From: Candidatus Kaiserbacteria bacterium
GTDB taxonomy: Bacteria > Patescibacteriota > Minisyncoccia > Phycocordibacterales > UBA2100
Assembly (NCBI GenBank): GCA_016217925.1
Contig: JACRFK010000003.1
Span: forward strand, 207,656 to 271,655
Direction: 5' to 3'
DNA length: 64,000 bases
The translations under genes were made by a program, and so were the position numbers. Under the pieces are notes generated by a model, which saw only the letters and a list, made by a program, of their open reading frames with translations, did not search any database and was not told the DNA's origin. This document shows, one piece after another, positions 5,648 to 52,377 of this stretch; position 1 is the stretch's first letter; each line of letters begins with the position of its first letter.

Positions 5648-6896
5648 CTTTGCCCATGTAGCCCCGCAAGACGTCGGGGATCGTTATTGAGCCGTCCGCA
5701 CGCTGATTGTTCTCGACGAGCTGGCAGAGGATGCGCGGCATCGCGAGCGCAGTGTTGTTGAGCGAGTGGACGTAGCGCACGGTACCGTTCTCATCGCGAT
5801 AGCGGATGTTGAGGCGTCGCGTCTGGAAATCGTGGAAATACGAAGACGAGTGTGTCTCGCGATATTTTTTCTCGCTCGGCATCCATGCTTCGATGTCATA
5901 CTTTTTCACCTGGCCCAATCCCAAGTCGCCCCCGCAATTGACGACCACGCGGTACGGCAATTTGAGTTCTTGGAGCAGCGCCTCGGAATTCGCGGTGAGC
6001 TCTTCGTGCAGCTTTACCGACTCCTCGTGGCTCGCTTCGCAGAGCACGACTTGCTCGTATTTTACGAATTCATGTATGCGGAAAATCCCTTTCGTATCTT
6101 TGCCGTGACTCCCCGCTTCACGGCGGAAGCACGGCGAGAAGGCGAAGAATTTGATAGGAAGGTCTTTCTTGTCGAGTATCTCTTCCATGTAATAGCCCAT
6201 CGAGGCGACCTCTGCGGTGCCCGCGAGATATTCTCCATCCTGCGTCTTGTAGAGGTCATCCTCGGATTGCGGTAAATAGCCCGTGCCGACGAATGATTCG
6301 CGGCGCACGAGTGAGGGGACGATTATCGGCGTGAAATCTTTTTTTGAAAAGCGGTCCTCCACGAACCGTTGGAGCGCCCACACCAGCCGCGCGCCGTCGT
6401 TTTTCAAAAAGTAGCCGCGGAAGCCCGCGACTTTGGCACCGCGCTCATAATCCGCCATGTCGTGGGCGAGCAAAAGCTCGCTGTGCGTCTTGGGCTCGAA
6501 ATCGAATGCTGGCTTTTCGCCCCACGCCCTGACCTCCTGATTGTCTGCGTCGGACGTGCCTTCCGGCACCGACATGTCTGGAACATTCGGGACAAGCACC
6601 ATCATCGCGCGCCACTCTTTTAGAATGGCCTGCATTGATTCCTCGGCGAGCTTGAGGGTCTCTTTCACACCCTGCATACGGGCGATGACTTCCTGCTTTT
6701 CGGTGTCTGACTTGGCCGATGCGATGGCATCCGATGCGATATTCTGCTCTGCGCGTTTCTCGTCTATCGTCATCTGCAACTCCCGCCGCTTGTCATCGAT
6801 TGAGAGGAGTTTGTCGATGTCTATCTCGATGTGCTTTTTCTTCGCGCCCGCGGCGACAATATCCTTGTTTTCTCTGATAAACTTAATATCCAACAT
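5628..6896 (-). CDS. serS: seryl-tRNA synthetase
   Basis: 422 aa; N-terminal coiled-coil MLDIKFIRENKD, class II core motifs FRREAGSHGKDTKGIFRIHEF. Confidence 0.9.
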   Translation of the reverse strand: MLDIKFIRENKDIVAAGAKKKHIEIDIDKLLSIDDKRRELQMTIDEKRAEQNIASDAIASAKSDTEKQEVIARMQGVKETLKLAEESMQAILKEWRAMMVLVPNVPDMSVPEGTSDADNQEVRAWGEKPAFDFEPKTHSELLLAHDMADYERGAKVAGFRGYFLKNDGARLVWALQRFVEDRFSKKDFTPIIVPSLVRRESFVGTGYLPQSEDDLYKTQDGEYLAGTAEVASMGYYMEEILDKKDLPIKFFAFSPCFRREAGSHGKDTKGIFRIHEFVKYEQVVLCEASHEESVKLHEELTANSEALLQELKLPYRVVVNCGGDLGLGQVKKYDIEAWMPSEKKYRETHSSSYFHDFQTRRLNIRYRDENGTVRYVHSLNNTALAMPRILCQLVENNQRADGSITIPDVLRGYMGKDAIEKK

Positions 6897-6913
6897 ATCA
6901 CGATGATACCATC

Positions 6914-7780
6914 ATGGCGGACGACCTCAAATTACTTTCCCCACACGAGTTCCCGCCACTCCTCAGGGAAATTTCTGACCCGCCGAAGCAATTGCACCAG
7001 CGGGGCGTGATGCCGAGCACCGAGCACAAGTGGCTCGCGGTCGTCGGCTCTCGTGCAATGACGAACTACGGCAAGCAGGCCGTACGCCATCTTATAGAAG
7101 GCCTCCGCGGCTATCCTGTCGTCATCGTGAGCGGGCTTGCGTACGGCGTGGATGCCGAGGCGCACAAAGCGGCGCTTGAGGCCGGCCTCACGACAGTCGC
7201 GGTGCCAGGCTCCGGACTCGACTGGAACGTGCTGTATCCCCGGGCGAATGTGGGCCTCGCGCGCGAGATATTGAAAGCGGGTGGTACGCTCTTGTCAGAA
7301 TTCAAACCGGAGCAAAAAGCGACGGACTACACTTTTCCACAGCGCAACCGCATCATGGCGGGGCTCTCGCACGCGACGCTCGTCGTCGAGGCAAAGGAGA
7401 AATCGGGCTCGCTCATCACCGCGAAGCTCGTCACCGAATACAACCGAGAACTGCTCGTCGTGCCCGGCTCCATATTCTCGGCCGAAAGCAAGGGCACACA
7501 CCAATTCCTGCGGCTCGGTGCGACGGCCGTGACTTCGCCCGAAGACATCCTCGTCGCTCTCGGAATCGCGAAACGAGAAGGCCCGGCGTCTTGGGCGGAA
7601 ATGCGTGAAGGTCTTTCGGCCGACGAGCTGAGGGTGTTCGAGATAATTCATTCGCCCGTATCCCGCGACGAGCTCATCGGCGAACTCGAACTGCCGATTA
7701 CCGAAGCGAATGTGCTGCTCTCCACGATGGAGATCAAAGGGTTGATAGTGGAGGAGCTTGGTGTCGTCCGGATGCGGTAG
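6914..7780 (+). CDS. dprA: DNA processing protein DprA (Smf)
   Basis: GSRAMTNYGKQAVRHLIEGL...VVIVSGLAYGVDAEAH Rossmann-like DprA core. Confidence 0.85.
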   Translation: MADDLKLLSPHEFPPLLREISDPPKQLHQRGVMPSTEHKWLAVVGSRAMTNYGKQAVRHLIEGLRGYPVVIVSGLAYGVDAEAHKAALEAGLTTVAVPGSGLDWNVLYPRANVGLAREILKAGGTLLSEFKPEQKATDYTFPQRNRIMAGLSHATLVVEAKEKSGSLITAKLVTEYNRELLVVPGSIFSAESKGTHQFLRLGATAVTSPEDILVALGIAKREGPASWAEMREGLSADELRVFEIIHSPVSRDELIGELELPITEANVLLSTMEIKGLIVEELGVVRMR

Positions 7781-8145
7781 TGTTGCAAAGCCAGTAAAAT
7801 CAATGTATAAAGCAGGCCGCTCTGTGTTGTTGTTGTGTAGGCGTACACCGCGTTCCCCAAACGACACCGAGGGAGATGTCCCGTGTCACGACGAAGAATT
7901 GATTGGTATGAACTTGGTACAGCGCGGAAGAAAACGGCCGCGATACGATGCGTCATGCAGAGACTTCGCAAGAACAAAAAGCGCGTGACGGGGGATGCCG
8001 TCACCGCCCGCTTCAAAAACGTATCGCGTGGTGGCGTGATCACGCATTGCTGGCGTTACGGTCCTCGACTTCCAAAGGCGCGCTCGAGTGCGGGCTCACG
8101 CAAGTGGCCGCGTCCGCTGACGCGAACGCATTGGCGATGAGCAAG

Positions 8146-8175
8146 ATGCCCGGCGCGAAAGCGCCGGGCCATTTT
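8146..8175 (+). terminator. rho-independent terminator
   Basis: GCCCGGCGCGAAAGCGCCGGGC followed by CATTTTT. Confidence 0.55.
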
Positions 8176-8224
8176 TATCTGCACCATTTGACATATGGTA
8201 CTCTTCTGGAGTATGACTACCCGC

Positions 8225-8329
8225 CATGAATCCCGCCCTTTCAGCGCGATATTATTTCTGCGAAATACTGATACTGTTCGATATGTCATCTTGCGTACCA
8301 ATCGTTATTAGCGTAGAAAGGGCGGGATG
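8225..8329 (+). promoter_or_regulatory. long-range inverted repeat whose 3' arm ends at the topA start codon
   Basis: CATGAATCCCGCCCTTTC (8225..8242) pairs with GAAAGGGCGGGAT (8316..8328) immediately before ATG 8327. The same 13-18-nt motif recurs at 31865 and 48297. Confidence 0.4.
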
Positions 8330-42823: not shown

Positions 42824-43155
42824 TGAGCATAAACGCAGAAGTATCCAAAAGCGGCAATGAAAGCACGCTTTCTACCATTCGCAAATTCTCCCGCCGCGTA
42901 CAGGGTACGGGCTTGGTACGCACCGTCCGCGGAGGACGCTACTACACACGCACCGCATCCAAGATAGTGAAGAAGAAGCGCGCGCTCAAGCTCATTAAGC
43001 GCCGCGCTGACTACAAGCAGCTCATCAAGGAGGGTAAGGTCATCGAAGCTGCGCCCCGCCACGGACAAGGAGGCCGCCCATCGCACAATCGCCCCGGCCA
43101 GACTGAACAATCGTCCGCTCCGAAGCCTGCCGAGAGTACCCCTGTCGCAAGATAA
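42823..43155 (+). CDS. rpsU: 30S ribosomal protein S21-like
   Basis: GNESTLSTIRKFSRRVQGTGLVRTVRGGRYYTRTASKIVKKKRALK resembles the S21 (E..ALRRFKR..G.L.EVR.R.Y.KPS.KRK) pattern; basic; extended C-terminus. Confidence 0.5.
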   Translation: MSINAEVSKSGNESTLSTIRKFSRRVQGTGLVRTVRGGRYYTRTASKIVKKKRALKLIKRRADYKQLIKEGKVIEAAPRHGQGGRPSHNRPGQTEQSSAPKPAESTPVAR

Positions 43156-43194
43156 CGACTTCGTAAGTCGTTATAACGATTTGCGAAGTCGTTA
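43154..43194. repeat. tandem 20-nt palindromes R1 (AACGACTTCGTAAGTCGTTA / AACGATTTGCGAAGTCGTTA)
   Basis: Perfect 8-bp-arm palindromes spanning rpsU stop to ybeY start; further copies at 44838 and 45011. Confidence 0.6.
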
Positions 43195-43205
43195 TGCACC
43201 CAACG

Positions 43206-43610
43206 ATGAAAACCGGGATTACAACGACTATTCGCGGCCCTATGCCACGAATTCCGTTTGAGAAGATAGCCCGCGCGATACTTGGCAAGAACTATGAGCT
43301 TTCACTCGTCATCTGCGGCGATAAACTCGTGCGCCGGATGAATCAGAAGTATCGGAAGAAGAGTTACCGGCCAAATATCCTTTCCTTTCCCCTTTCAAAG
43401 GACGAGGGGGAGATTTTTTTGAACGTCCGCGCGGCGGCGCGCGAAGCGCGCCGCCTCAAGGTCCCCCTTCGTGACCGTTTGGCTCTATTGTTTGTCCACG
43501 GATGCTTACACTTAAAGGGACTGCAACATGGGCGTATAATGGAGGCACAAGAGCAGCGCATTCTGCGTGTCTTTCATTTTTCATGCAACGGCCAATATAT
43601 ACAGGAATAG
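43206..43610 (+). CDS. ybeY: endoribonuclease YbeY
   Basis: HGCLHLKGLQHG (H..LHL.G.DH metal site); about 134 aa. Confidence 0.8.
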   Translation: MKTGITTTIRGPMPRIPFEKIARAILGKNYELSLVICGDKLVRRMNQKYRKKSYRPNILSFPLSKDEGEIFLNVRAAAREARRLKVPLRDRLALLFVHGCLHLKGLQHGRIMEAQEQRILRVFHFSCNGQYIQE

Positions 43611-44755
43611 ACATCGGCACGTACCACGTCAAGGTCGTTGTCGCAGCGCCTACGGAGAACTCTGAGCTCCCGCTTACTATCCTGGGCACCGGCACATCGA
43701 CGTCGCGCGGATTACGGCACGGCTATATCATCGACCAAAAAGAGGCGACGCGGAGTATCCGCGAGGCGCTCGGGCGTGCGCTCGGCGCGGCAAAGGTCAA
43801 AGTGCGTAGCACACGGGTGGCCCTCGGGGGCATCGGCCTCGATGAGATACGTTCCACCGGCGAAGTAGCGCTTACCGTATCCGGCGGCGTCGTGACAGAG
43901 CGCGAGATAGACCGCGCACTCCGCGAGAGCGAGAAAAAAGCTTCCGCCAAGCTAACGAACCGCACCGTTATCCATGCAATACCGCTCGAGTACCGTGTAG
44001 ATGGCACCAAGGTTTTCGGCAGGCCGCTCGGGCTTCAAGGCACGCGCCTCACCGTCGACACGCTCCTCATAACGATGCTCTCACAACACCAGGAAGACCT
44101 CATCGAGGCGGTCGAGGCCGCCGGTATCGAAGTCGATGGCGTTATGGCCTCTCCGCTTGCCGCGAGCCTCGTCACGCTCACGAAGGCGCAAAAAACCGCT
44201 GGCGTCGTCCTCGCGAATATCGGCGCAGAAACACTCTCTGTCGTCGTCTTCGAAGACGATACGCCGATCTCGCTCAAGATCTTCCCGACCGGCTCATCCG
44301 AGATAACGGAATCCATCGCCCTTTCGTTCAAGATACCGCTCTCGGAAGCAGAGAGCCTCAAGCGTGGCGGTGTGATTGGAAGCGACATCCCAGAGAAAAA
44401 AATGGGCGTCATTATCGGCGCACAGCTCAAAGAAATGTACACACTCGTGAACGCACATCTGAAAACCATCGGCCGCCACCGTCTTTTGCCCGCGGGTATC
44501 GTCATTACAGGCGGCGGCTCAGGCCTTACTTCCGCGGCGGAAATCGCACGCGCCGTCCTCCAGCTACCCTCGCAGGTCTCACAGATAGGGCAGATGCCAC
44601 GCTCATCCGGCGTTGACGCCACGTGGGCGGTCGCCTACGGCCTCTGTAGGTGGGCCTACGCCGAAGACGCCTCAGGGGCGCGGCAGACGTTTGGCGGGGT
44701 CCTCTCCGGCGGCTGGGAGTCATTGAAACAAGGCTTGCGATCGTTACTCCCATAA
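43583..44755 (+). CDS. ftsA: cell division protein FtsA
   Basis: Actin-fold IYTGIDIGTYHVKVVVA...GGIGLDE...VITGGGSGL; start at internal MQRPIYTG; overlaps ybeY by about 28 nt. Confidence 0.85.
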   Translation: MQRPIYTGIDIGTYHVKVVVAAPTENSELPLTILGTGTSTSRGLRHGYIIDQKEATRSIREALGRALGAAKVKVRSTRVALGGIGLDEIRSTGEVALTVSGGVVTEREIDRALRESEKKASAKLTNRTVIHAIPLEYRVDGTKVFGRPLGLQGTRLTVDTLLITMLSQHQEDLIEAVEAAGIEVDGVMASPLAASLVTLTKAQKTAGVVLANIGAETLSVVVFEDDTPISLKIFPTGSSEITESIALSFKIPLSEAESLKRGGVIGSDIPEKKMGVIIGAQLKEMYTLVNAHLKTIGRHRLLPAGIVITGGGSGLTSAAEIARAVLQLPSQVSQIGQMPRSSGVDATWAVAYGLCRWAYAEDASGARQTFGGVLSGGWESLKQGLRSLLP

Positions 44756-44837
44756 AAAGACACGGACTCGCCAACGCGGCGAGCCCGCATGTTCAGACGA
44801 TAATCAAGAGCAAGATTATCGCTGTAACCAGAAAATT

Positions 44838-45060
44838 AACGACTTCGTAAGTCGTTATCATAAGTCGTTCTCATGCAATGAGATGTCATCTCATTGCAAA
44901 TCTAATATTCTTATATTTCGTCTATGGTGAGAAATAGGAACATCGAAGATATTCCCAGTTGGTGACGACAGCTTACGAATGGGAATATTGCTTTTCGCAT
45001 TAAAAAGATTAAAGACTTCGTAAGTCGTTATTCCCTACGCAATGAGATGTCACCTCATTG
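44838..45060. repeat. repeat-dense intergenic block: two R1-R2 palindrome units about 170 nt apart
   Basis: R1 AACGACTTCGTAAGTCGTTA (44838, 45011) and R2 GCAATGAGATGTCATCTCATTGC (44875, 45040); followed by a long hairpin at 45078..45126. Confidence 0.6.
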
Positions 45061-45158
45061 GGTCTCATAAAAGAAGAACCGCCTCGCCGAGAGAAGATGT
45101 CCCGACGAGGTCGGTGGTTCTTCTTCGACGTAGCGGTTCGTTAGTCCAAGAGGCTCGC

Positions 45159-45317: not shown

Positions 45318-45430
45318 TTTCTTCCCCTGGTTTCGTAGCGTTGACGATTCGTGACCAAGTTGTATGATACCACCCCATATTGTGTTTGTCAAGCTTGCCC
45401 TTTTCGGTAAAGTGCTATTATGGCCTCACT

Positions 45431-46621
45431 ATGACAAAACAAGTAAAGCCGGATGTTGAGTCGTTCGCACGTATACGAGTTATTGGCGTCGGTGGATCAG
45501 GAGGAAACGCGGTGAATCACATGGTTTCCTCGCACGTGGTCGGCGTTGATTTCATAGCCATCAATACAGATGCGCAAGACCTCCACAAGAACAAAGCGAA
45601 GCGTAAAATCAATATCGGTAAGACTCTCACGCGAGGGCTTGGCGCGGGAATGAACGCAGAGCTTGGCAAGCAGGCGGCTGAAGAAACGCGAGAAGAAATC
45701 CAAGAAGCTATCAAGGGTTCCGATATGGTGTTCATCACCTGCGGTATGGGTGGCGGCACTGGCACGGGTGCCGCGCCGACAGTAGCGAAAATCGCGCGCG
45801 AGCTCGGAGCGCTCACCGTCGGCGTCGTCACGCGCCCGTTCGGATTTGAAGGCCAGCAGCGTATGCGCCTCGCGGAGGCAGGGCTCGCCGAATTGCGCAA
45901 GGCGGTAGATGCGCTCATCATAATTCCCAACGACAAACTTCTCGCTATCGTTTCCCGCGAGACCGGCATCAAAAATGCCTTTGCAATGTGCGACGACATT
46001 CTGAAGCAGGCCGTTGAAGGTATCTCTGATCTCATTACAACGACCGGCATTATTAACGTCGACTTCGCGGACGTGCGTGCCATCATGCACAACGCCGGAA
46101 GCGCGCTTATGGGTATTGGCACCGCGATAGGCGAGCACCGCGCCGAGATGGCGGCCCGCGCAGCTATCAATTCCCCGCTTCTCGAGGTCTCGATAAACGG
46201 AGCCAAGGGCGTTCTCTTCTCAATCGCCGGCGGCGAGGACCTCGGAATGCTCGAAGTGCAGGACGCGGCCAACGTCATTACCGAGGCCATCGATCCGGAT
46301 GCGAAAGTTATCTTCGGTGCTGTTACCGACGACTCGCTCAAGAAGGGCCAGGTACGAGTCACTGTTATCGCGACTGGTTTCCCGGAGGCCGGACAACGCG
46401 CCTCGCTTTTCGCGGGTTCGCAACGTATCGTAGCCAAAAAAGATCAGGATGTACCGCCGGTCAATCCGCGGGCACGTGAGGAGATGAAAAAAATGACTGA
46501 GACTACGGAGAAACACGAAAAGTCAACAGTAAAAGATGCCCCGAAAACAGCCGTCAAAACCCAAGCAGAAGATGACGAGGATAGCTGGGGAGGACTGCCG
46601 TCGTTTTTGCGTCGTAAATAA
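45431..46621 (+). CDS. ftsZ: cell division protein FtsZ
   Basis: [13 protein letters not shown], tubulin signature [11 protein letters not shown]7 loop NxDxxD-like region; start at internal MTKQVKPD. Confidence 0.9.
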
Positions 46622-46635
46622 TGTAGAATAGTCCG

Positions 46636-47565
46636 ATGTCGGAGAGCTACGAACTCGGAATTGTGGGCGGCGGCCCCGCAGGGGCCGCCGCAGCTATCTA
46701 CGCCGCGCGCAAACGCTTGAAGACCGTCTTCATCACGAGTGAATGGGGCGGCCAAAGCACAGTCTCGACCGATGTGCAGAATTGGATAGGTACGCCTTCC
46801 ATCTCCGGCACCGAGCTCGCGGCCAACTTGCGCAAACACGTGGAAGCGTACGCCGGTGAATGGCTCACCATCGTCTCCCCCGCACTTGCGACCGGCCTCA
46901 CCACACACGACGACCGCGTTGAGATGACGACGAACAAGGGCGTATTTCAGGCGGGCGCCGTCCTCATCACGACCGGTGCCAACCGTCGCAAACTCGAAGT
47001 GAAAGGTGCGGCGCAGTACGACCAAAAAGGCCTCACCTATTGCGCGAGCTGTGACGGTCCCCTCTTTGCCGACAAAGATGTAGCGGTCATCGGCGGCGGC
47101 AACGCCGCATTTGAAACGGCGCTCCAGCTCCTTGCCTACTGTAAGACCGTGACGCTTTTCAATCGCACCGACACCTTTAGGGCCGACGCGATATCCGTCA
47201 ATGCCGCGCTCACCAACCCAAAAATGCACGTCATAAAGCAGAGCGAGATACTCGAAGTCGTCGGCGACAAATTCATCACGGGCCTGCGTTGGAAAGACTC
47301 ACAAAGCGGCAAAGAAGAGGTCCTCCCCGTTGAGGGTATCTTCGTTGAAATAGGACTCATTCCAAATACCGCGTGGACGGGCAGCGCCGTTGAGAAAAAC
47401 GAAATAGGACAGGTCAAAGTGGACCCCCGCACGCACCAGGCCTCGCACCCGCGCATCTGGGCCGCGGGCGATTGCACCGACGGCCTCTACCACCAAAACA
47501 ACATAGCCGCCGGCGACGCCGTGAAAGCGCTTGAGGATATCTACATGGCGCTGCGGAGGGTTTAG
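46636..47565 (+). CDS. trxB: thioredoxin-disulfide reductase
   Basis: FAD site GGGPAGAAAAIYAAR, redox CASCDG, NADPH site GGGNAAFETAL. Confidence 0.85.
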   Translation: MSESYELGIVGGGPAGAAAAIYAARKRLKTVFITSEWGGQSTVSTDVQNWIGTPSISGTELAANLRKHVEAYAGEWLTIVSPALATGLTTHDDRVEMTTNKGVFQAGAVLITTGANRRKLEVKGAAQYDQKGLTYCASCDGPLFADKDVAVIGGGNAAFETALQLLAYCKTVTLFNRTDTFRADAISVNAALTNPKMHVIKQSEILEVVGDKFITGLRWKDSQSGKEEVLPVEGIFVEIGLIPNTAWTGSAVEKNEIGQVKVDPRTHQASHPRIWAAGDCTDGLYHQNNIAAGDAVKALEDIYMALRRV

Positions 47566-49249: not shown

Positions 49250-50221
49250 CTAGTGCCTGAAATGCCGGATGTCGGTCGTCACCATTGCGATGTTTGCCTT
49301 GTCTGCGGCATCGATTGAATCTTGGTCTTTGAGCGACCCGCCGGGCTGAATAATAGCGGTCGCGCCCACGCGCGCGGCTTCTTCCACACAATCGGGGAAC
49401 GGGAAGAATGCGTCCGAGGCCATGACCGCTCCTTTTAAACCATGAGATGACATCTCATTGGCTTTCATGGCTGCTATCTTTGCGCTCACGATGCGGCTCA
49501 TTTGGCCTGCGCCGATGCCGACCGTGGCACCATTTTTGGCATACACAATTGCGTTGGATTTCACGTGTTTGCAGACGGTAAAGGCAAACATCATGTCGGA
49601 AAGTTCTTCGGCAGTCGGCGCACGTTTGGTGACCGTTTTTACTTCCCCGTCGAAAACCATATTGTCAGCATCCTGCACAAGGAATCCTCCCGCGATAGAG
49701 CGCGCCGTAACCCTCTTCTCCGCGGCATCCGGCATCGTCCCCGTGAGAAGCACGCGGACATTGGGCTTGGCGGAAAGAATCGCGAGCGCGTCCTCTTCCG
49801 CGTCGGGTGCGATGACGACTTCGAGAAATATCTGAACCAATTCGGTCGCGAGCACTGCGGTCAGTTTGGAATTAAGAGCTACGATACCGCCGAAGGCTGA
49901 AACCTTGTCGCACGCGAGCGCACGTAGATATGCCTCTTGGACACTCTCACCCACCGCGACGCCGCAGGGATTCATGTGCTTGACGATGACGCAGGCCGGC
50001 TCGTCGAATTCCGCCACGCACTCGAACGCCGCGTCGGCATCCTGCAGATTGTTGTAGCTCAGTTCTTTGCCCTGCACCTTGCGCGCTGTGGCGACACCCG
50101 GGCGCTTGTCGTTTGGATTGAGGTAGAGAGCACCCCCCTGGTGAGCATTTTCGCCGTAGCGCAGCACCTCGGCCCGCTTGAGGTTGAGCCGCATCTCCTC
50201 GGGAAACTCTGTATCTGTCAT
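49250..50221 (-). CDS. purH: AICAR transformylase domain protein (PurH C-terminal domain only; no IMP-cyclohydrolase/MGS domain)
   Basis: 323 aa; aligns to E. coli PurH residues about 200-529 ([39 protein letters not shown]). Contains in-frame R2 palindrome encoding ANEMSSHG. Confidence 0.8.
49440..49461. repeat. R2 palindrome copy inside purH CDS (in frame)
   Basis: CCATGAGATGACATCTCATTGG; rc-identical arms CCAATGAGATG/CATCTCATTGG around a central single base. Confidence 0.65.
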
Positions 50222-50230
50222 CTCAACAGT

Positions 50231-50728
50231 TTACTCAACAACGACAATTTTACCAAACGCTCCCACACTTCGATGATCGTGGAACGGCCATGTGCCAACT
50301 TTGTCGAATGTGAACGTGTAGCTCGTTCCTGCCGCACATTGGTCAAACGACGGTACTGCTCCAGCGGCACAGTGTGCATTTCTTGTCGTTCCATCGTAAT
50401 TCGTGTGTTCCGGATGCGGACCGGAAGCAACCCACATGGTGCTCGGTCCATTAAACGTCACTGTGCCGCCCTTTTTGATAGTCACTTCCGATGGGGAAAA
50501 ACTTGACCCATTGTAGGTAACTACCGCCGACGTCGGTGTGGTGTCCACCACCGCATCCCCTCCGACCAGTGTTCCCGTGTCGCCGGTCGGCGTTGTGTTC
50601 GTCTCTCCGCTTAGCTGGGTCGAATTATCCGCTGTGGGCACTGCCGCCGGCTGGCTTGTAAACCACCAGGCACCTGCCGCGATAATAAGTAGCGCGATTA
50701 TGACCGCTATCCATCCATTTTGAGACAT
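50231..50728 (-). CDS. membrane-anchored cupredoxin-fold-like protein
   Basis: N-terminal TM; GTVTFNGPSTMWVASGPHPEH...NAHCAAG...WPFHDHRSVGAFGKIVV suggests plastocyanin/azurin-like fold; no clear Met ligand. Confidence 0.4.
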   Translation of the reverse strand: MSQNGWIAVIIALLIIAAGAWWFTSQPAAVPTADNSTQLSGETNTTPTGDTGTLVGGDAVVDTTPTSAVVTYNGSSFSPSEVTIKKGGTVTFNGPSTMWVASGPHPEHTNYDGTTRNAHCAAGAVPSFDQCAAGTSYTFTFDKVGTWPFHDHRSVGAFGKIVVVE

Positions 50729-50798
50729 AACAAAATTGTACATGTAAACCTCTACTACTAAATTGACACTGAGTATAGCACCCTACCTCGTGAACGTT

Positions 50799-52280: not shown

Positions 52281-52335
52281 TGGAGAACATACTACCATTC
52301 CGCACAAAAATATACAGCAAACCGCTATCGTGAGA

Positions 52336-52360
52336 CCCAATGAGATGACATCTCATTGGG
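52336..52360. repeat. R2 palindrome copy (intergenic)
   Basis: CCCAATGAGATGACATCTCATTGGG; supplies a spurious in-frame ATG to the pyrF ORF. Confidence 0.65.
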
Positions 52361-52377
52361 TCGTCCCCCCTCAAGAT

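Follow-up and report, generated by a model that had tools for sequence, protein, structure and literature searches.

What are the short palindromes that recur, between genes and in frame within them, in a 64,000-nucleotide stretch of a Candidatus Kaiserbacteria genome (the window), and how did they come to be there? A preliminary description of this stretch had proposed two families of repeats, R1 and R2, resembling REP or MITE elements and able to land in coding sequence. Based on their occurrence in related genomes, the genes that they flank, and the protein loops that they encode, we consider it likely that R1 and R2 are two REP-type hairpin families of CPR bacteria (Patescibacteria), each the substrate of its own predicted RAYT-like HUH/Y1 transposase, and that the window holds solo copies of both together with one inverted doublet.

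Two palindrome families in the window

R1 is the palindrome TAACGACTT-CGT-AAGTCGTTA, and R2 is the palindrome CAATGAGATG-T-CATCTCATTG, the center of which is a single base and not the variable stretch first suspected. Each has four copies between 43.1 and 52.4 kb, where dinucleotide-preserving shuffles predict 0.01 copies of R1 and 0.00 of R2; the existence of two dispersed families is thereby borne out. With the exception of one decayed copy in miaA, all copies lie within 9 kb. An Rfam scan of the window returned tRNAs only.

At the rpsU/ybeY junction, two R1 copies adjoin, as had been noted, with the second inverted. The first is perfect (43153..43173, plus strand) and begins with the rpsU stop codon TAA (43153-43155); the second (43174..43194, minus strand) has two mismatches and ends on the A (43194) with which the first ATG of the ybeY open reading frame begins. 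Together they form a 44-nt REPIN-like doublet (43152-43195) predicted to fold into a single 20-bp hairpin (-16.9 kcal/mol as DNA, z = -7.9). R1 thus supplies the first ATG of the ybeY frame, but translation may equally well start at 43206, since the N-terminus of YbeY varies among relatives. An orthologous doublet exists in the related locus L041, and in L150, which lacks the copies, the spacer measures 6 nt. Inverted doublets are also found in L027/L118, L041 and L145, while the majority of copies are singlets.

The ftsA–ftsZ spacer contains copies of both families, all on the plus strand. A perfect R1 (44837..44857) lies 82 nt 3' of the ftsA stop codon and is followed by a lone R1 right half-site, AAGTCGTT (44862..44869), within a 13-nt stretch missing from L059 and L098, and by a perfect R2 (44874..44898, core 44876-44896) with the 12-nt arms TGCAATGAGATG-T-CATCTCATTGCA. 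Further downstream, an R1 with one mismatch (45010..45030) is located inside a 69-nt segment (approximately 45008-45076) missing from the orthologous spacer of L059, and an R2 with one mismatch (45040..45060) is a hybrid, its left arm being of R2 type (GAGATG) and its right arm of a variant type (CACCTC). The R1 copy at 44837..44857 is 100% conserved in the orthologous spacers of L041, L059, L098 and L113. In orthologous ftsA–ftsZ spacers R2 takes the variant form CGATGAGGTGTCACCTCATCG, which differs from the window copy at 44874..44898 by two compensatory pair changes. In relatives without these copies (L150 and L147), the spacer is 26-62 nt long. We also considered whether the spacer is a decayed transposase gene and rejected this origin, as tblastn matched R1-encoded peptides only.

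The remaining R2 copies lie on the minus strand. One, with a single mismatch (49440..49460), is in frame within the AICARFT (purH) open reading frame (49250-50221); the other (52334..52362, core 52338-52358) has perfect 14-nt arms and lies 15 nt 3' of the stop codon of a minus-strand gene, upstream of pyrF, with an orthologous copy in L147 and L149. The decayed R2 variant, CGATGAGGTGTCGCCTCGTCG (16269..16289, plus strand), retains 8 of 10 pairs and is in frame within the miaA open reading frame (15991-16974), where it encodes DEVSPRR; the same site in the miaA gene of L019 holds a perfect R2. The presence of copies at the same sites in relatives marks most of those in the window as old and vertically inherited. 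No clean insertion polymorphism could be read at pyrF between the near-identical strains L147 and L148, because a recombination breakpoint close to the start of pyrF separates them and leaves no readable junction.

Do R1 and R2 form a composite element with fixed spacing, as their neighborhood in the ftsA–ftsZ spacer might suggest? In the window they are 18 and 9 nt apart, and approximately 120 R1-bearing loci yielded just five weak R2 matches. A composite unit is therefore rejected on account of variable spacing and of co-occurrence that is rare outside the orthologous spacer. The adjacency is conserved only in this spacer of close relatives and so looks like a local, BIME-like cluster.

Distribution and hairpin structure

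A scan of metagenome contigs with the R1 core matched at least 120 of them, and R2 occurs in at least 11 CPR contigs from several CPR genomes, including one metagenome-assembled genome with six exact copies. The repeats are thus neither confined to the window nor made by assembly: independently made assemblies (JGI, ENA, NCBI and Logan) contain them at orthologous positions, and conserved genes carry them in frame, which leaves a negligible probability that they are assembly or adapter artifacts. A phage origin was likewise discarded: of 2.9 million viral contigs, 2 contain R1 and none contains R2.

Each repeat is a perfect palindrome that spans 21-27 nt and has a loop of 1-3 nt. Pairing usually extends to the bases on either side (ATG...CAT, T...A), and in 20 of 107 copies, including copies within open reading frames, the stem is lengthened by at least four locus-specific complementary bases, compared with 0.4 copies expected. 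We detected no conserved unpaired 5' tetranucleotide in the flanks of more than 100 copies, and the stem mismatch of TnpA-REP substrates was not seen in R1 or R2. Nor did we find direct target-site duplications around the copies, the flanks of which are often mutually complementary. The label MITE-like, which implies terminal inverted repeats and a target-site duplication, accordingly does not apply to an element of just 21-27 nt without such duplications. A search for intrinsic terminators (a GC-rich stem and a T-run on the transcribed strand) flagged the R1 copy at 44837 alone, on the non-coding strand.

Copies in frame within genes

The presence of these repeats in coding sequence was borne out. 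Sixty-two of 129 distinct R1 contexts (approximately 48%) fall within long open frames, in many cases confirmed by homology (PurB, MnmA, GuaA, UvrA, UvrB and LysA), and the encoded peptides read xNDLRSRx, xNDFVSRx or ERL(T/R)KSF. R2 is intragenic in 4 of 11 CPR copies, in addition to the purH and miaA copies of the window, and encodes (C)NEM(S/T)SH(C) in PurH, PurD, PheT, MiaA and TsaD. The repeat-encoded peptides comprise 7-9 residues. In the window, the gene termed purH encodes a stand-alone AICARFT domain of 323 residues; its R2 copy specifies A-N-E-M-S-S-H-G in a loop where the closest orthologs, at 89% identity, have a sequence of the EEASIS type. This loop is longer by one residue than that of these orthologs and by four than that of Mycobacterium tuberculosis PurH. 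In purH and miaA the copies are probably retained because the reading frame stays open and the peptide, short and hydrophilic, falls in a surface loop that tolerates it.

Whether the repeats land in coding sequence, in the sense of plain insertion, is a separate matter. Their in-frame presence is clear, but in several genes the repeat takes the place of the native loop, the length of which stays the same or nearly so: net changes are 0, 0, -1, +1, +1, +2 and +2 residues. Longer gains are seen in UvrA, UvrB and a Dus-like gene (+13 to +17 residues) and in LysA (+5). Some element-free loops resemble R1 minus its center. From one genome to another, the hairpin family found in a given protein loop can differ.

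A RAYT-like transposase bracketed by the repeats

In at least ten loci of related genomes, R1 brackets a gene of approximately 220 codons with an HUH motif, and in ten loci the module has the order R1, approximately 52 codons, R1 in frame, approximately 165 codons, stop codon, R1. R2 brackets a homologous open reading frame in one locus, L010. Each transposase contains in frame a palindromic peptide of the repeat type, located approximately 20 residues N-terminal of the HUH motif. In a sample selected for R1, approximately 170 R1 copies stand against 29 transposase-gene loci. No RAYT-like gene is present within the 64 kb of the window.

The repeat-flanked reading frames match the Pfam family Y1_Tnp (PF01797) with 25.5 and 25.4 bits (cut-off 23). 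Their sole NCBIfam match is the REP-associated tyrosine transposase (E = 7.5e-9 and 2.3e-9), with scores of 35.6 and 37.3 bits for the RAYT equivalog NF047646 that are far under its cut-off of 80. The HUH histidines (H-Y/F-H), Tyr135 and His137 of a YxHxNP motif, and Tyr168 are invariant in 40 sequences. An AlphaFold model of moderate quality (pLDDT 70) has its best fold match (E = 5.8e-6) in 4er8_A, the E. coli REP-associated tyrosine transposase TnpA-REP bound to a REP hairpin, followed by the TnpA proteins of IS608 and ISDra2; the sequence-profile match to 4er8 in the PDB is insignificant (E = 0.68). Searches recovered at least 7,995 homologous proteins at E <= 1e-10, with hosts annotated as Kaiserbacteria, Komeilibacteria, Parcubacteria and Patescibacteria. 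Many of the RAYT-like homologs are encoded on very short contigs.

The proposed REP-like nature of the repeats is hence on firmer ground than the sequence of the window alone allowed, given that relatives have RAYT-like Y1 transposase genes with R1 or, in other loci, R2 on their flanks. We conclude from this arrangement that R1 and R2 are probably REP-like repeats with cognate RAYT-like transposases.

Discussion

In conjunction, these data lead us to propose the following model, the steps of which are modeled on the TnpA proteins of IS200/IS605 elements and on TnpA-REP. The enzyme would recognize a hairpin extruded in single-stranded DNA at the replication fork, cut at the hairpin foot and transfer strands, which would seed new copies and homogenize or exchange existing hairpins. 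An exchange between hairpins of similar length would explain why different families occupy the same loops in different genomes, why loop length is nearly constant, and how the hybrid copy at 45040 arose. The copies 3' of rpsU, of ftsA and of the gene preceding pyrF probably serve as 3' hairpins on transcripts, a role assigned by analogy with E. coli REPs only.

Several features are shared with the REP/REPIN–RAYT systems, that is, the REP and BIME elements of E. coli with TnpA-REP and the REPINs of Pseudomonas. These include short, dispersed hairpin repeats, identical copies of which bracket a Y1 HUH gene; a protein whose best structural match is TnpA-REP; inverted doublets and mixed local clusters, with R1 beside R2 as in BIMEs; vertically inherited positions; and several coexisting families, each with its own transposase. 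REP hairpins are imperfect and have on their 5' side a guide of four conserved, unpaired bases, which reads GTAG in E. coli (PMC3479197, PMC6006769), and E. coli TnpA-REP requires both this tetranucleotide and the stem mismatch (PMC3479197). R1 and R2, by contrast, are perfect palindromes of 21-27 nt with neither a GTAG-type guide nor a mismatch. REPs are predominantly extragenic, whereas about half of the R1 copies are intragenic and in frame; the CPR transposase is longer (approximately 220 versus 165 residues), scores under the NCBIfam RAYT cut-off, and includes a repeat copy in frame; and the hosts are CPR bacteria instead of Proteobacteria. A literature search for RAYTs or REPs in CPR bacteria or Patescibacteria returned nothing relevant. 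The departures in hairpin structure, score and intragenic location count against the REP–RAYT reading, as do the lack of a RAYT-like gene in the window, the clustering of all window copies but the decayed one within 9 kb, the insignificant sequence match to 4er8, and net loop-length changes that do not agree with simple insertion.

Repeats within genes have a precedent in the Rickettsia palindromic elements, which occur in frame in many unrelated housekeeping genes and add a peptide in a tolerated region (PMC10969869). R1 and R2 share the location in unrelated housekeeping genes, but the Rickettsia elements, for which no transposase is known, are approximately 100-150 bp long and lengthen proteins by 30-50 residues, whereas R1 and R2 span 21-27 nt, encode 7-9 residues, often replace a loop, have a candidate cognate enzyme and reside in another host group. 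With IS200/IS605 elements such as IS608 and ISDra2, the system has in common the transposase superfamily and fold and, by analogy, presumably the recognition of DNA hairpins in single-stranded DNA, subterminal in IS200/IS605. HIP1 of cyanobacteria and the Haemophilus uptake signal sequence are short motifs, over-represented in genes and in preferred frames, that replace sequence without insertions or deletions; they measure 8-12 nt, can arise by point mutation and have no flanked transposase. A perfect palindrome of 21-27 nt, unlike these motifs, is not plausibly made by point mutation.

Could the repeats have spread without transposition? In a templated conversion, replication or repair would use another hairpin, or single-stranded DNA released by the transposase, as the source of a short patch copied into a partly similar site, and the arms would be perfected by intrastrand template switching, with the transposase at most providing nicks or template. 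The hybrid copy at 45040, the replacement of native loops in MiaA, PurB, TsaD, MnmA, PurD and PurH at a net gain of 0 to +2 residues, and the excess of locus-specific stem pairs are all in keeping with such a process. We nonetheless regard it as unlikely, given that true insertions exist in UvrA, UvrB, the Dus-like gene and LysA and that no donor–recipient microhomology came to light. If, moreover, the element-free loops that look like R1 without its center derive from center-deleted copies, insertion followed by trimming explains the lengths. Selection of functional hairpins in place, for instance as stabilizers of RNA 3' ends, terminators or sites of RNA- or DNA-binding proteins, with an incidental transposase association, would account for the R1 copy that is fully conserved in the ftsA–ftsZ spacer amid diverged flanks, for the compensatory changes between orthologous R2 copies, and for the three window copies directly 3' of stop codons. 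This appears improbable: housekeeping genes of many kinds, unrelated to one another, contain the same 19-27 nt sequence in frame, in both orientations and in two frames; copies bracket transposase genes and occur within them; and the coding strand has neither a T-run nor a GC-rich stem.

Autonomous IS200/IS605-type insertion sequences, of which R1 and R2 would be the ends and solo copies the scars, are suggested by a hairpin-flanked transposase of the Y1/IS200 superfamily. In those elements, however, the left- and right-end hairpins are distinct, while here one palindrome marks both flanks and an internal site; the gene has no tnpB beside it, solo copies far outnumber gene loci, and orthologous solo copies are vertically inherited. 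We identified no specific target tetranucleotide of the IS200/IS605 kind for R1 or R2 and hold this origin to be very improbable. An even more remote prospect is that the repeats are operators of dimeric transcription factors: their dyad symmetry is perfect, the 7-1-7 layout of R2 resembles Fur-family boxes, and some copies lie upstream of pyrF, ybeY and ftsZ, but more than 120 contigs share the identical sequence, whereas operators typically are degenerate, and the sites are missing upstream of the same genes in close relatives. Since approximately half of the copies lie in coding sequence of unrelated genes and the repeats flank a transposase, we have set aside both a Fur-like operator and an uptake sequence.

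We favor REP-type hairpins with cognate RAYT-like transposases. It is conceivable, though doubtful, that the CPR RAYT-like family goes a step further and maintains perfect hairpins of 21-27 nt in fixed slots, both intergenic and within protein loops, that are overwritten by whichever family is active while the transposase keeps its own hairpin. Periodic overwriting would proceed by hairpin-for-hairpin strand exchange or by templated patch copying, thereby preserving loop length, and the in-frame hairpin in each transposase would be a module for self-recognition or autoregulation. If true, this would represent a new mode of repeat propagation, by replacement instead of insertion, and would generate systematic loop variation in essential proteins of organisms with minimal genomes.

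What is the relevance of these repeats for CPR bacteria? Their tiny, streamlined genomes carry a large REP/RAYT-like system, with at least approximately 8,000 transposase homologs. As many of these homologs are found on very short contigs, R1- and R2-type repeats may contribute to the fragmentation of CPR assemblies. How REPs spread is an old open question, for which the CPR system supplies many natural junctions, among them some that are in frame and length-neutral and repeated hits on the same loop. With a small, perfectly palindromic substrate and candidate enzymes that can be expressed, the mechanism is directly testable. The short foreign peptides that the repeats place in essential enzymes are, in addition, relevant to genome annotation and to the modeling of protein structures.

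Results

The hairpin repeats R1 (TAACGACTT-CGT-AAGTCGTTA) and R2 (CAATGAGATG-T-CATCTCATTG) are present at the window sites named in the preliminary description, with dinucleotide-preserving shuffles predicting 0.01 and 0.00 chance matches, respectively. R1 is perfect at 43153-43173 and 44837-44857, has one mismatch at 45010-45030, and is inverted with two mismatches at 43174-43194. R2 is perfect at 44876-44896 and 52338-52358, and has one mismatch at 45040-45060 and at 49440-49460; arms extend to 12 and 14 nt in two R2 copies. The copy at 49440, described as lying in frame inside purH, does encode NEMSSHG in ORF 49250-50221, and a decayed R2-variant palindrome (16269-16289) lies in frame in the miaA ORF (15991-16974), at the very site of a perfect R2 in miaA of another Kaiserbacteria genome (L019). 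The R1 pair between rpsU and ybeY abuts in opposite orientation and folds as one 20-bp hairpin (-16.9 kcal/mol). It provides the first ATG of the ybeY ORF, at 43194; the YbeY N-termini, poorly conserved among relatives, fit a start at the 43206 ATG equally well. In a position-by-position alignment, R1 and R2 have 10 of 21 bases in common (xAAxGAxxTxxxAxxTCxTTx), and ATG...CAT ends are frequent in both; the hairpin families may have a common ancestor, or the likeness may stem from contacts with the enzyme that both share. A perfect palindrome with 11-bp arms, GCGGCGGCCCC-NNN-GGGGCCGCCGC, in a thioredoxin-reductase-like gene (46667-46691 in the window; 11885-11909 in locus L001 and 10171-10195 in locus L007) seems to result incidentally from the GGGPAGAAAA dinucleotide-binding motif and not to be a repeat element.

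Neither family is confined to the window or artefactual, both being present in many independent contigs and genomes. A search for exact matches, with each species represented by one genome, placed the R2 core at 17 loci, 11 of them from genomes of the candidate phyla radiation (CPR; Patescibacteria), with six of these 11 in a single MAG; the non-CPR matches are about as many as expected by chance. The usual CPR form of R2 is a 27-nt palindrome, ATGCAATGAGATG-T-CATCTCATTGCAT. A metagenome scan found the R1 core in at least 120 contigs, mostly from groundwater and sediment, in two main forms, (A)TAACGAC...GTCGTTA(T) and ATGAACGAC...GTCGTTCAT, and a scan of viral contigs found almost no R1 or R2. 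One 280-kb contig (L090) carries five copies of a 39-nt palindromic R1 relative, CCTGTGGATAAACGACTTCGCAAGTCGTTTATCCACAGG, within about 5 kb (5697-10255).

At no fewer than ten R1 loci (L034, L068, L069, L088, L115, L124, L125, L128, L133 and L145), three R1 copies about 180 and 515 nt apart frame one ORF of 216-224 aa. The first precedes the start codon, the second lies in frame some 52 codons into the ORF, and the third follows the stop codon. The ORF contains H-Y/F-H (HUH), YxHxNP and YRWSSY motifs and scores above the Pfam Y1_Tnp gathering threshold (25.5 bits vs 23). Its sole NCBIfam match is REP-associated tyrosine transposase (RAYT; E = 7.5e-9), at 35.6 bits far under the equivalog cut-off of 80. 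In L010, a homologous ORF of 235 aa, which scores the same, is bracketed by two R2 copies. The best fold match of an AlphaFold model (pLDDT 70, pTM 0.66) is the E. coli RAYT bound to a REP hairpin (4er8_A, E = 5.8e-6), followed by IS608 and ISDra2 TnpA; the match to 4er8 by sequence only is not significant. The family numbers no fewer than 7995 proteins (E <= 1e-10), its named members coming from Kaiserbacteria, Komeilibacteria, Parcubacteria and Patescibacteria and being annotated "transposase" or "hypothetical protein"; none is encoded within the 64-kb window. A palindrome-type peptide is found in every transposase some 20 residues ahead of the HUH motif. In every R1-associated gene R1 lies there in frame, and the R1 peptide occupies this spot in 41 of 120 homologs, others having different peptides (for example MFDLRSRT, MIEIRSQS and MMEIVSPS); MMEIVSPS recurs as the PurH-loop insert of another compared protein (P0020). 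In the structure model the R1 segment (residues 43-56) is disordered.

About half of the R1 copies (62 of 129 distinct contexts) lie within genes, defined by an open frame of 40 codons or more to either side. They encode xNDLRSRx, xNDFVSRx or ERL(T/R)KSF, and many of the host ORFs can be recognised, among them PurB, MnmA, GuaA, UvrA, UvrB, LysA and an acyl-CoA synthetase; R2 encodes CNEM(S/T)SHC in PurD, PheT, MiaA and TsaD. In 20 of 107 copies (0.4 expected), complementary bases particular to the locus lengthen the stem by at least 4 bp beyond the family consensus. Such extensions also occur within ORFs and differ between orthologous transposase genes.

The relatives of the window's PurH-like protein are Candidatus Kaiserbacteria, within the CPR, and syntenic loci of relatives were recovered. 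The ftsA-ftsZ spacer measures 625 nt in the window vs 26 and 62 nt in two close relatives (L150 and L147), and the rpsU-ybeY spacer, 38 nt and wholly R1, compares with 6 nt in L150. A long ftsA-ftsZ spacer also exists in L041, L059, L098, L113, L121 and L135, where R1 is conserved base for base and in most cases adjoins an R2 variant, CGATGAGGTGTCACCTCATCG, two compensatory pair changes away from R2. Relative to L059, the window has 69 nt more, which hold its second R1-R2 pair; the R2 of this pair (45040) is a hybrid of R2 and the variant. The rpsU/ybeY doublet is common to the window and L041, and the R2 upstream of pyrF to the window, L147 and L149. Because relatives share them at orthologous sites, most window copies are, on these comparisons, old and vertically inherited.

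Several features of these loci may be recorded alongside. The strains L147 and L148 are 99.6% identical from pyrF onward and unrelated upstream, the breakpoint falling about 55 nt downstream of an R2 copy, which may reflect recombination near the repeat. In the ftsA-ftsZ spacer, a 48-nt box, GTCAAGCTTGCCCTTTTCGGTAAAGTGCTATTATGGCYTCACTATGAC (45387-45435), has 97-98% identity across five spacers that otherwise diverge. Hexamers resembling promoter elements lie within it, and the ftsZ start ATG (45431) marks its end, which suggests that the ftsZ leader is very short or absent and that the start lies 51 nt downstream of the ORF-finder TTG. A hairpin-forming stretch in the same spacer, ACCGCCTCGCCGAGAGAAGATGTCCCGACGAGGTCGGTGGT (45077-45118), shows 97% identity with L059 and L121 and differs in other relatives. 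Window purH (49250-50221) encodes a stand-alone AICARFT domain of 323 aa without the IMP cyclohydrolase (MGS-like) domain, and the gene upstream (50231-50743) a cupredoxin-like secreted protein, a layout common to all Kaiserbacteria relatives examined.

Discussion

What kind of element are R1 and R2? Copies in coding sequence tell strongly against transcription-factor operators and, together with the flanked transposase, against RNA hairpins selected in place. Identical palindromes at both ends make the ends of an autonomous IS200/IS605 element unlikely, DDE-type MITEs fail on the absence of target-site duplications, and artefacts on the recovery of the repeats from many independent assemblies. 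Among known systems, R1 and R2 come closest to the REP/REPIN-RAYT systems of Proteobacteria, which they resemble in flanking arrangement, transposase fold and dispersal; these three features support their membership in this kind. They differ in not being predominantly extragenic and in a transposase that scores under the curated RAYT model. Moreover, E. coli TnpA-REP needs an unpaired 5' GTAG-type guide tetranucleotide and a stem mismatch (PMC3479197), whereas R1 and R2 are perfect palindromes with neither. For in-frame palindromes, the Rickettsia palindromic elements provide a precedent (PMC10969869).

How do the hairpins come to lie in genes? Measured against solved structures or orthologs that lack the element, protein length changes by a net 0 residues in MiaA and PurB, -1 in TsaD (vs a CPR ortholog; +5 vs Salmonella), +1 in PurH and a CarA-like protein, +1 to +2 in MnmA, +2 in PurD, +5 in LysA, and +13 to +17 in a Dus-like protein, UvrA and UvrB, the inserts of the latter two containing R1 doublets. 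Since this change varies so widely, plain insertion of 7-9 codons is not the rule. Certain loops have been taken up again and again, the resident hairpin family differing from genome to genome: in a tree of 120 sequences, the PurH loop holds palindromes of at least six sequence families, scattered among eight or more clades, the PurD loop is R2, an IQEASPLGL-type palindrome or empty, the acyl-CoA synthetase loop has R1 or a YREIVSPDM-type palindrome, and MnmA has R1 in three configurations. Element-free loops of MnmA in L136 and LysA in L008 resemble a centre-deleted R1. We infer that insertion would seed sites, that selection and palindrome instability would then trim them, and that the currently active family would overwrite them, slots persisting while sequences turn over. 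Overwriting could proceed by hairpin-for-hairpin strand exchange by the Y1 enzyme or by templated patch copying. Spread by templated conversion instead of cut-and-paste is a serious alternative, one that concerns the mechanism and not the identity of the elements.

Three window sites lie shortly after stop codons, those of rpsU, of ftsA and of the gene preceding pyrF. If E. coli REPs are a guide, these copies may stabilise or end transcripts; on the coding strand, they do not look like intrinsic terminators. Our literature search, which was not exhaustive and in which absence is no proof, found no paper describing RAYTs or REPs in CPR bacteria. The way in which R1 and R2 propagate in these organisms is potentially interesting.
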